Assembly: GCA_009785865.1 (NCBI GenBank)
Contig: WQVL01000002.1
Coordinates: forward strand, 11,605-75,604
From: Oscillospiraceae bacterium
Lineage (GTDB): Bacteria; Bacillota; Clostridia; TANB77; CAG-508
Length of the DNA: 64,000 nucleotides
Direction: 5' to 3'
In this document: positions 28,229 to 29,655 of the stretch, one piece after another
Layout: each line of letters starts with the position of its first letter
Position numbering within the stretch: position 1 is the first letter of the stretch
The notes under the pieces: generated by a model
What the model saw: only the letters and a program-made list of their open reading frames with translations
What the model was told of the DNA's origin: nothing
Database searches by the model: none
Program-made: the position numbers and the translations under genes

Positions 28229-29655
28229 AAAACAATTCAGATAGTAAGTAGAAAATTAATTTAAAAAGTAATAAAAATTAATTTATTAAAAAATAAATTA
28301 AATAAAAAAAGGACCAAATATTTTTAGTGTATAACTTTTTTTATAAATAAAATTATCCAGTAAAAACGAACAAAGAAGTAAATAGAAATAATTAATTTGA
28401 AAAATGTCCGGACAAAAAAACCAAACAAAGGAAATAGCAAAGAAAAAGAAAATATGTAAACAAAAAGAAGTTAAATTAAGATTGCTGAATAAAGAAGATT
28501 CAGAAAAAGAGAATAAAGAAGAAATTTGAGGAGAAAGAAAGAGAGAACAAATTCACAAAAGATTACATAACAGAAGAAACAAAAAGATATGTTTAACATC
28601 TAGGAAGCCCTTGTACTATAAAAGTAAAAGATGTGAACAGATGATAGGGGAAGAAAAGGAAGAAGAAACACACATAAAAGACGAAAAGGGAAAAAATGGA
28701 AACAACAGAGGGCCGAGGATATCCTCCGGCAAAGGGAAAACAAGCATTTTAGAAGAAAAACGACAGCGATTAGTTAATAGAATTTCAAGAAAAAACAGGT
28801 AAGAAAAAACAATAAAATAGTATAGAAATTGTTTTTAAGAAAATAAATGGATGACTTTTATACAAAAGAGAAAAGAGACTCAATAGTAAAAAAGTTTTTA
28901 CTGCTCAATGACAAGACGAATTATGACCACTACAAAAAGGGGCAAAAAAGAAGAAAAGTCTGAGAGTTAAAAAAGAAGAAAAGAAGAGAAGGAAGGAGGA
29001 CTAAAGAAAGTGAGTAAATGAGTGAAAAGACATGAGCATAAAAAGTTGAGAAAAAGAATAACATGGGGAAAAAATATAGCGAACAAAAAATAGAAAGAGG
29101 CGTAAAAATTTTTAAAAAATATAAACAAGAAGCTATACTATAAAATAGGAAAAATAAATTGATAAAAAAATTAATTAAAAAATAAAATAAAAATAATTAG
29201 TAATTAATAATCTAATTTAAATTAATAATTTAAATAGATAATTAAAAAAAATAAAAAAATAAATATTAAAATAAAAAAATAGTTTAGAAAATAAAAAAAA
29301 TTAGAAAAAATAGATAAAAAAAGAATAAAGCAGAGAATAAAAAATATTATAATTATTAAATTTGAAGAATAGTCCAAATTAATTTTAAAGCAATAATAAA
29401 GAATCGAATCTATATAATTGATAAAACAAATGCAACAAAGTTTTGCGAAAGAGACAAAAAAGGGAAGAAAATATAAGGATACTTCTTTTTGACAATAGAA
29501 GTCAGTTTAAGGTTATGCGAAACAGGTACTTTGAAAATCATAATAGAGAATAGGCAGAAAGGGAGAAGAATGGAAAAAACATGAAGATTACATAACCGAA
29601 GAAAGGCATAAAAGGAGTTTCTGGTCTATTGTAAAAAAGGGGAAAGGAGAGAAAC
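28229..29655 (+). repeat. R2: AT-rich, purine-skewed noncoding repeat. Homology continues to 30213 into the gene for the inverted copy.
   Basis: About 80% identical to 44168..45070 (R3). Reverse-complement match to 6564..7960 (R1). No ORF; stops in all frames. Confidence 0.7.

Follow-up and report, generated by a model that had tools for sequence, protein, structure and literature searches.

Long ORF-poor tracts near the replication origin of an Oscillospiraceae bacterium: background composition and two pairwise duplications

The 64,000 nt of contig WQVL01000002.1 analyzed here (hereafter "the window") comprise the replication-origin region of a low-GC Firmicute, an Oscillospiraceae bacterium. 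Three long tracts poor in open reading frames (ORFs) lie in this region, and one of them, at 28229-29655, had been flagged by a first-pass annotation as a member of a three-copy family of purine-skewed noncoding repeats. The repeats are real; however, self-blastn of the window resolves them into two distinct pairs, repeat A (direct) and repeat B (inverted), and not into a three-copy family. The purine skew equals that of the genomic background, coding and RNA signals are missing from the noncoding sequence, and the flagged tract is absent from syntenic relatives. The explanation that we favor, with a probability of roughly 0.6, is that the tracts are neutral, lineage-specific, non-functional filler DNA located at insertion-prone sites and reshuffled by two ectopic duplications.

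The two A copies lie 15.9 kb apart and share 81% identity over ~1030 nt, a similarity far beyond chance (blastn E = 0; local-alignment score z = 139 against shuffles). Their ends are not sharp but fade into shared AT-rich spacers. Divergence between the copies looks neutral: transitions and transversions stand at 98:51, mismatches are distributed over the three phases as 54/52/43, and the substitutions are symmetric, with 40 A>G, 34 G>A and all other types present. About 70 stops can be compared at aligned positions, and 48 of them, in all frames, are common to both copies; therefore, A was noncoding before its duplication. A diversity-generating retroelement was also considered and rejected, as its adenine-confined mismatches are absent; no reverse-transcriptase domain was seen among the neighboring genes scanned.

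Over 1099 nt, the B copies share 94% identity, and copy 2 carries an in-frame deletion of 12 nt. The parent is copy 1, which includes the beginning of a ParA/MinD-like gene whose position is syntenic in relatives. The truncated gene carried by copy 2 differs from its parent by 8 synonymous and 9 non-synonymous codons, the latter clustered at the end. Changes in the coding half of B show a third-position excess, and divergence is about equal in the coding and noncoding halves. As in segmental duplications, B runs at 94% identity through spacer, leader and 588 nt of gene, and A is maintained at 81% over ~0.9-1.0 kb. The presumed first member of the family, 6564-7960, must be redrawn accordingly: only 6564-7060 is homologous to the flagged tract, where it matches 29147-29655 and not A, while 7061-7960 matches nothing. 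With copy 2 ~12.5 kb left of the origin and copy 1 ~10.7 kb right of it, the B pair is placed almost as a mirror image, an arrangement reminiscent of origin-symmetric rearrangements.

A single sequence is common to all three loci: an AT-rich junction of ~65 nt, inside which an exact 21-mer is found at 29192-29212. A ends, and B starts, on this junction. Of the candidates suggested earlier, only a recombination substrate fits, in the sense that the loci have exchanged or duplicated sequence.

The tracts that contain the repeats amount to ~7.3 kb, or 11% of the window; the other intergenic gaps measure 43-644 nt, with GC contents of 20-37%. Every frame of all three tracts is interrupted by stops, and no regular spacing of the kind found in clustered regularly interspaced short palindromic repeats (CRISPR) is present, as had been stated. 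The description of the tracts as long and noncoding holds in part: they exist, but the 3.4-kb tract contains the truncated ParA copy at 6003-6563, and half of B is coding. A 60-nt composition profile revealed that islands of 300-800 nt (GC 25-45%) alternate with ultra-AT spacers of 120-350 nt (GC 2-10%), more extreme than ordinary intergenic DNA of the window. Most Tandem Repeats Finder rows sit in the spacers, with periods of 7-34 and 84 nt, and the spacers look like simple sequence generated by slippage. In the flagged tract (tract 2), the order is AT spacer, A island, AT spacer and a 300-nt "leader" island (29360-29655); tract 3 holds two islands besides A, at 45110-45520 and 45770-46170.

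When the nine islands were aligned all against all, relatedness was detected between the two A copies and, weakly, between two segments of tract 3 (45279-45403 and 45936-46060). This alignment led us to drop the idea of a single unit from which all islands diverged. Two other candidates were discarded: a CRISPR array, as find_repeats and Tandem Repeats Finder reported only irregular AT-rich simple repeats, and an ACATAAA motif whose enrichment in the tracts is slight (~2-fold over local composition, by a rough estimate) and lacks significance window-wide. An independent megahit contig matches the window base for base from 18611 to 29679 except at its last 7 variant positions; hence, tract 2 is not an assembly artefact. 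Those 7 terminal positions carry the variants of B copy 2, the assembly having broken inside repeat B.

The composition of the tracts was compared with the background of the genome. Both GC and AT skew change sign at ~19 kb, beside dnaA (19100-20344). The purine-rich strand is indeed the leading strand on both sides of this switch (~19.0-19.1 kb), as had been noted. At four-fold degenerate sites of leading-strand genes, base frequencies are A.52, C.054, G.164 and T.263, that is, 68% purine and 22% GC; lagging-strand genes show the mirrored composition on their coding strand. The islands have A.46-.54, C.08-.10, G.16-.25 and T.17-.24, with ~70% purines. Because the islands match the four-fold sites of leading-strand genes, the purine and AT skew of the tracts is the neutral leading-strand background of the genome and not a property of the repeats, as which it had been treated. 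A strong purine asymmetry is an established trait of Firmicutes (PMC4070872). All copies keep the leading-strand orientation because A was copied directly on one replichore while B was inverted onto the other.

Comparison with relatives involved six loci that are collinear with the window from dnaA through ileS at 65-82% nucleotide identity: L001, L002 and L011-L014, where L011 and L012 are one locus in two assemblies, and L013 and L014 another. In all six, the VirB4-like region upstream of tract 2 stops 100-150 nt before the ParA-like gene, and window positions 28233-29633 have no counterpart: the alignment, at 75-80% identity, jumps from 28221 to ~29634-29737. Tract 2 is a lineage-specific insertion. 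The counterparts of the other tracts vary as well. The interval between tRNA-Thr and the short-chain dehydrogenase/reductase (SDR) gene, which tract 3 fills in the window, differs widely in size and gene content among L017, L018 and L019 (Table 1). The interval from tRNA-Ser to gerM spans 3.3 kb in L015, and 1.6 kb plus a patatin gene in L016; both tracts are long and AT-rich and show the same texture of islands and spacers, without sequence similarity to the window. The tRNA flanks are variable, insertion-prone sites.

Altogether, these observations lead us to infer the following history. Filler DNA would have accumulated at insertion-prone spots close to the origin, two of them on the 3' side of tRNA clusters and the third in a short intergenic gap inside the conserved VirB4-like/ParA-like block; very old decayed or foreign DNA is a candidate source of the islands. 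These may then have relaxed to the neutral leading-strand equilibrium (A ~0.5, purines ~70%), and the ultra-AT spacers may be cryptic tandem repeats that arose, most simply, by replication slippage. A (~0.9 kb), noncoding by then, would have been copied in direct orientation 15.9 kb away, and B (1.1 kb) would have been copied in inverted orientation across the origin, taking along the 5' third of the ParA-like gene. As the right boundary of A and the left boundary of B both fall in the ~65-nt AT-rich segment, it may have supplied the homology, or been the breakpoint, for recombination or template switching.

Several points weigh against such a neutral history. Kilobase-scale neutral DNA is unusual in bacteria owing to deletion bias. 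The GC content of the islands, 25-35%, somewhat exceeds that of four-fold sites (22%), and full equilibrium is thus unproven. The 5' ~200 nt of A are ~90% identical between copies (96% in the first 50 nt), against 70-86% elsewhere; this better-kept end could be a constrained promoter or 5' element, or merely a later patch of gene conversion. A promoter-like sequence, TTGATA-18-TAAAAT (29159-29188), lies inside the three-way junction. Lastly, the copy count covers ~74 kb of genome: neither further copies nor an ultra-AT tract were found in the 10 kb past the right end of the window.

Some of these points are what one would expect if the islands were lineage-specific, largely unstructured purine-rich transcripts, with A a long noncoding RNA, 29360-29655 a long 5' leader, and each unit driven from the AT-rich spacer upstream. 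Their sense orientation is that of the flanking genes, and the 5' end of A is the best-conserved part. The promoter-like sequence lies upstream of the leader and is retained in B copy 2, and the leader was co-duplicated with the 5' part of the gene and has diverged about as little as the coding part. However, promoter-like matches are overall no commoner than in shuffles, the composition of the islands is not distinguishable from that of neutral sites, and the tract is missing from all five syntenic relatives, where the same ParA-like gene has a spacer of 100-150 nt. A search of the whole window against Rfam at the gathering score returned 6 tRNAs only, and nothing relevant appeared in the three tracts at E <= 10 or E <= 1. 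Minimum-free-energy z-scores of -1.17 and -0.31 gave no signal of folding beyond composition. The consensus fold of the two A copies computed with RNAalifold is weak (113 pairs in 912 columns, ~1/4 of the bases, at -38 kcal/mol), and its 4 double changes come from 2 sequences, a number that offers no covariation power. The covariation and structure analysis envisaged in the first-pass annotation thus lends no support to its candidate of a long noncoding RNA or leader, and we regard transcripts of this kind as unlikely. A variant is that the islands are a fast-evolving set of unstructured, lineage-specific transcripts, each with its own ultra-AT promoter spacer and with A as a duplicated member; the first 50-200 nt of A would then be a promoter plus 5' functional element, and long leaders or RNA decoys are examples of what such transcripts would be. 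We consider this variant less probable still.

Equally unlikely as the simple transcript proposal, in our view, is that A is a non-autonomous mobile element, or a relic of an insertion sequence (IS), integrative conjugative element (ICE) or prophage, inserted twice independently, and that the tracts are decayed integrated elements. In its favor, tracts 1 and 3 abut the 3' side of tRNA clusters and their content varies among relatives, L018 having a 4.9-kb gene island at the same tRNA-Thr flank; conjugation-type genes are close by, and, in comparison with the relatives, tract 2 is cleanly inserted. Against it, tract 2 is not beside a tRNA gene, and the tracts bear no similarity to the genes of the L018 island. 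No att-like direct repeat of tRNA 3' ends was found, and the Pfam search of the sense frames of the tracts revealed no remnant of an integrase or transposase domain. No terminal inverted repeats of A were detected beyond AT-rich low complexity, and the diffuse ends of A make target-site duplications not assessable. Matches were lacking in external collections as well: blastn against phage and plasmid records gave no match, four patterns searched in viral contigs gave only chance 19-mer matches, and an exact k-mer scan with the most conserved part of A gave one chance match (Aquimarina) in a genome collection and seven in a metagenome collection, both of which evidently lack the source contig itself. 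An IS element or a miniature inverted-repeat transposable element was rejected, given the lack of terminal inverted repeats and of a transposase domain and the presence of only two A copies in ~74 kb.

The conjugation-type genes deserve a separate comment. Neighbors of the type IV secretion system (T4SS) kind and tRNA clusters are present as the first-pass annotation described; however, the T4SS link is weaker than it appears, since all relatives examined share the VirB4-like/ParA-like block between gyrB and gyrA in a conserved, syntenic form. This block is not a fresh mobile element.

A last possibility, which we consider improbable, is that the islands are pseudogenes, that is, very old genes, encoding for example a lysine/glutamate-rich protein, whose reading frames have been lost by erosion. 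The islands have the size of genes and lie between spacers of lower GC, and genes called in pieces are common in the clade. The longest open stretch in A has 90 codons, or 136 if one TGA is read through (28392-28802); the 90-aa product, however, matches itself only among 1.84 billion representative proteins. Pfam gave 0 matches in stop-masked translations of the three sense frames of all tracts, and in tblastn and tblastx of the tracts against the genes of relatives the ParA fragment was the sole match. Three-base periodicity was above shuffles in 0 of 13 island pieces (signal-to-noise ratio, S/N, 0.2-1.5; p 0.2-0.99), compared with 13 of 14 gene pieces (S/N 2.8-9); in 150-nt windows, too, the islands behave as shuffled sequence, while the truncated ParA copy does show periodicity. 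Alternative genetic codes do not open the tracts: with TGA or TAG as sense, the longest open stretch is at most 136 codons, and with TAA as sense at most 128 codons in tracts 2 and 3, TAA being the commonest stop in every frame. Besides, stops are common to both A copies in every frame, no orthologous gene exists at the site in relatives, and a translation rich in lysine, glutamate and arginine is expected from any purine-rich DNA. The decayed gene of a highly charged protein that had been suggested is thus not upheld as a recent event.

Table 1. Location of the tracts, repeats and neighboring features in the window, and size of the tRNA-Thr to SDR interval in three relatives
Feature	Position or size	Strand	Remarks
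Tract 1	5608-9022	-	3.4 kb, tRNA-Ser cluster to GerM-like gene; unrelated islands, AT simple-sequence spacers, repeat B copy 2
Tract 2 (flagged interval)	28229-29655	+	1.4 kb, flanked by the last VirB4-like piece and by the ParA/MinD-like gene
Tract 3	43886-46330	+	2.4 kb, tRNA-Thr to frameshifted FabG-like SDR gene; repeat A copy 2
Repeat A copy 1	28309-29213 (blastn extent 28254-29275)	+	81% identical to copy 2
Repeat A copy 2	44166-45058 (blastn extent 44104-45114)	+	In tract 3, downstream of the tRNA-Lys/Glu/Thr cluster
Repeat B copy 1 (parent copy)	29147-30243	+	AT spacer, 300-nt leader island, first 588 nt of ParA/MinD-like gene
Repeat B copy 2	5987-7060	-	Inverted duplicate on the other replichore; includes truncated gene copy
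Truncated ParA/MinD-like copy	6003-6563	-	N-terminal 186 aa, GTG start; period-3 S/N 3.6
Three-locus shared segment	29151-29217 (+), 44993-45056 (+), 6989-7056 (-)		~65 nt, AT-rich
Weak internal repeat	45279-45403	+	~68% identical to 45936-46060 over 125 nt, z = 9.4 vs shuffles
84-nt tandem duplication in AT spacer	8119-8312		Example of simple-sequence spacers
tRNA-Ser x3	9023-9413	-	Adjoins tract 1
tRNA-Lys/Glu/Thr cluster	43654-43885		Adjoins tract 3
VirB4-like conjugation-type ATPase	25772-28228	+	Three ORFs (25772-26404, 26373-26945, 27137-28228); upstream neighbor of tract 2
ParA/MinD-like ATPase gene	29656-30993	+	Extra N-terminal domain; 5' part inside repeat B
VirD4-like gene	41352-42806		
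tRNA-Thr to SDR interval, L017	~155 nt		No genes
tRNA-Thr to SDR interval, L019	478 nt		One ORF
tRNA-Thr to SDR interval, L018	4.9 kb		~Nine intact genes, unrelated to tract 3

The genomic setting of the tracts is that of a replication origin. On the plus strand, dnaA is followed by dnaN, recF, gyrB, gyrA and ileS; to the left of the origin, the minus strand carries parB, a DUF4446 gene and a GerM-like gene. The source is a metagenome-assembled genome (MAG) of an Oscillospiraceae bacterium of the termite-gut type, a gut Firmicute of the spore-former type known only as a MAG, and the nearest relatives of its ParA/MinD-like protein come from metagenome assemblies of the Joint Genome Institute (JGI) and the European Nucleotide Archive (ENA). 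The protein encoded at 29656-30993 has a 100% identical match in a MAG with the NCBI label Oscillospiraceae bacterium. Variation within the source was also detected: L035 3-7239 is 99.53% identical to window 56764-64000 (34 mismatches in 7.2 kb), and L020, from the same ENA assembly, is identical to the window, an indication of strain heterogeneity in the sample. Another run, SRR10512955, yielded a Logan contig that matches 1.8 kb of the window with 100% identity.

The VirB4-like ATPase belongs to the NCBIfam CD1110 family, and its block is 75-78% nucleotide-identical across relatives. The gene is split into at least 3 ORFs per genome, with break points that differ between genomes; its counterparts are found at L002 7465-9980, L011 815-3123 and L013 6312-9851. 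The period-3 signal of the region is intermediate (median 1.57 vs 2.37 for genes). This pattern admits two explanations: the region is either a conserved gene that is split or rescued by slippage, or an oddly well-conserved pseudogene.

The stretch from ileS to the tRNA-Lys/Glu/Thr cluster contains a lagging-strand block (37701-43014, minus) with genes for a DnaC/IstB-like ATPase, a DnaD-domain protein and the VirD4-like coupling protein as well as a 296-aa ORF. This block looks like an old remnant of an integrated conjugative element; L011 also has DnaC-like and DnaD-like genes after ileS. Downstream of tract 3, the FabG-like SDR gene (46331-47059) carries a 1-nt insertion ~25 nt past the ATG at 46331, which throws the motif VTGGSRGIGK out of frame; both NCBI and JGI call a truncated product of 225 aa. 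The length in relatives is 241 aa, and the L018 copy is likewise called at 225 aa.

Essential genes in pieces were also observed in relatives: gidA in 3 (L015 52-1937), and dnaN and ileS in 2 each (L013 1848-2973 and 14977-18143). Frameshifts seem to be common in the clade, and real decay, slippage at A runs or assembly error are possible causes. In L019 1-304 (GCA_947630255.1, CANRGU010000004.1), the anticodon loop of tRNA-Thr(UGU) is split by a group I intron of ~224 nt (Rfam RF00028, 58.6 bits against a gathering score of 50, E = 3e-14); window 43810-43846 and 43846-43888 match the two exon halves at 100% identity. Finally, a 63-nt segment that spans a ribosome-binding site and start codon occurs with 84% identity at 20780-20842, upstream of dnaN, and at 30979-31041, upstream of a 246-aa ORF located after the ParA-like gene. 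This pair was not found in the loci of relatives and shows no fold signal (z = -0.6, -0.1).

The tracts can be compared with several known systems. Like the junk tracts of reductive or relaxed genomes, Rickettsia prowazekii being the classical case, they are kilobase-long, ORF-free and close to mutational equilibrium in composition; they are lineage-specific, without sequence conservation even at a conserved position, and neighboring genes are frameshifted. The R. prowazekii genome is reportedly ~24% noncoding, and this DNA is read as decayed genes. In our tracts, however, neither residual protein similarity nor codon periodicity was found, so that an origin in genes is unproven, and the host is not an established obligate intracellular bacterium. 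The start of tracts 1 and 3 right after tRNA clusters, and an interval that ranges from 155 nt to 4.9 kb across relatives, recall tRNA-linked island hot spots; unlike these, the tracts lack an integrase, an att duplication and recognizable cargo genes. Inverted B, with its gene fragment and upstream region, and A as a dispersed direct copy are akin to segmental duplications and origin-symmetric rearrangements, although the duplications are small compared with origin-symmetric inversions, and it is the ~65-nt junction alone from which a mechanism can be read. Large noncoding RNAs such as GOLLD, ROOL, OLE and HEARO share with the islands a size of 0.6-0.9 kb, a Firmicute host and, in one copy, a tRNA cluster as neighbor; nonetheless, the islands show no covariance-model match, no structure signal and no cross-species conservation, and at 71-74% purines they have too few pyrimidines for extensive pairing.

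The main value of this analysis lies in a corrected annotation: the background composition and two ordinary duplications account for both the skew and the apparent family. No new class of element is needed, and the phenomenon is an ordinary one in an unusually gap-rich region of the genome. If the islands were transcribed after all, the tracts would act as a nursery in which a gut Firmicute gains new noncoding genes. Kilobase-scale noncoding DNA and many genes in pieces seem to be tolerated in this clade of Oscillospiraceae MAGs; should that prove true genome-wide, neutral mutation spectra and the deletion bias of a gut Firmicute could be measured in this lineage.

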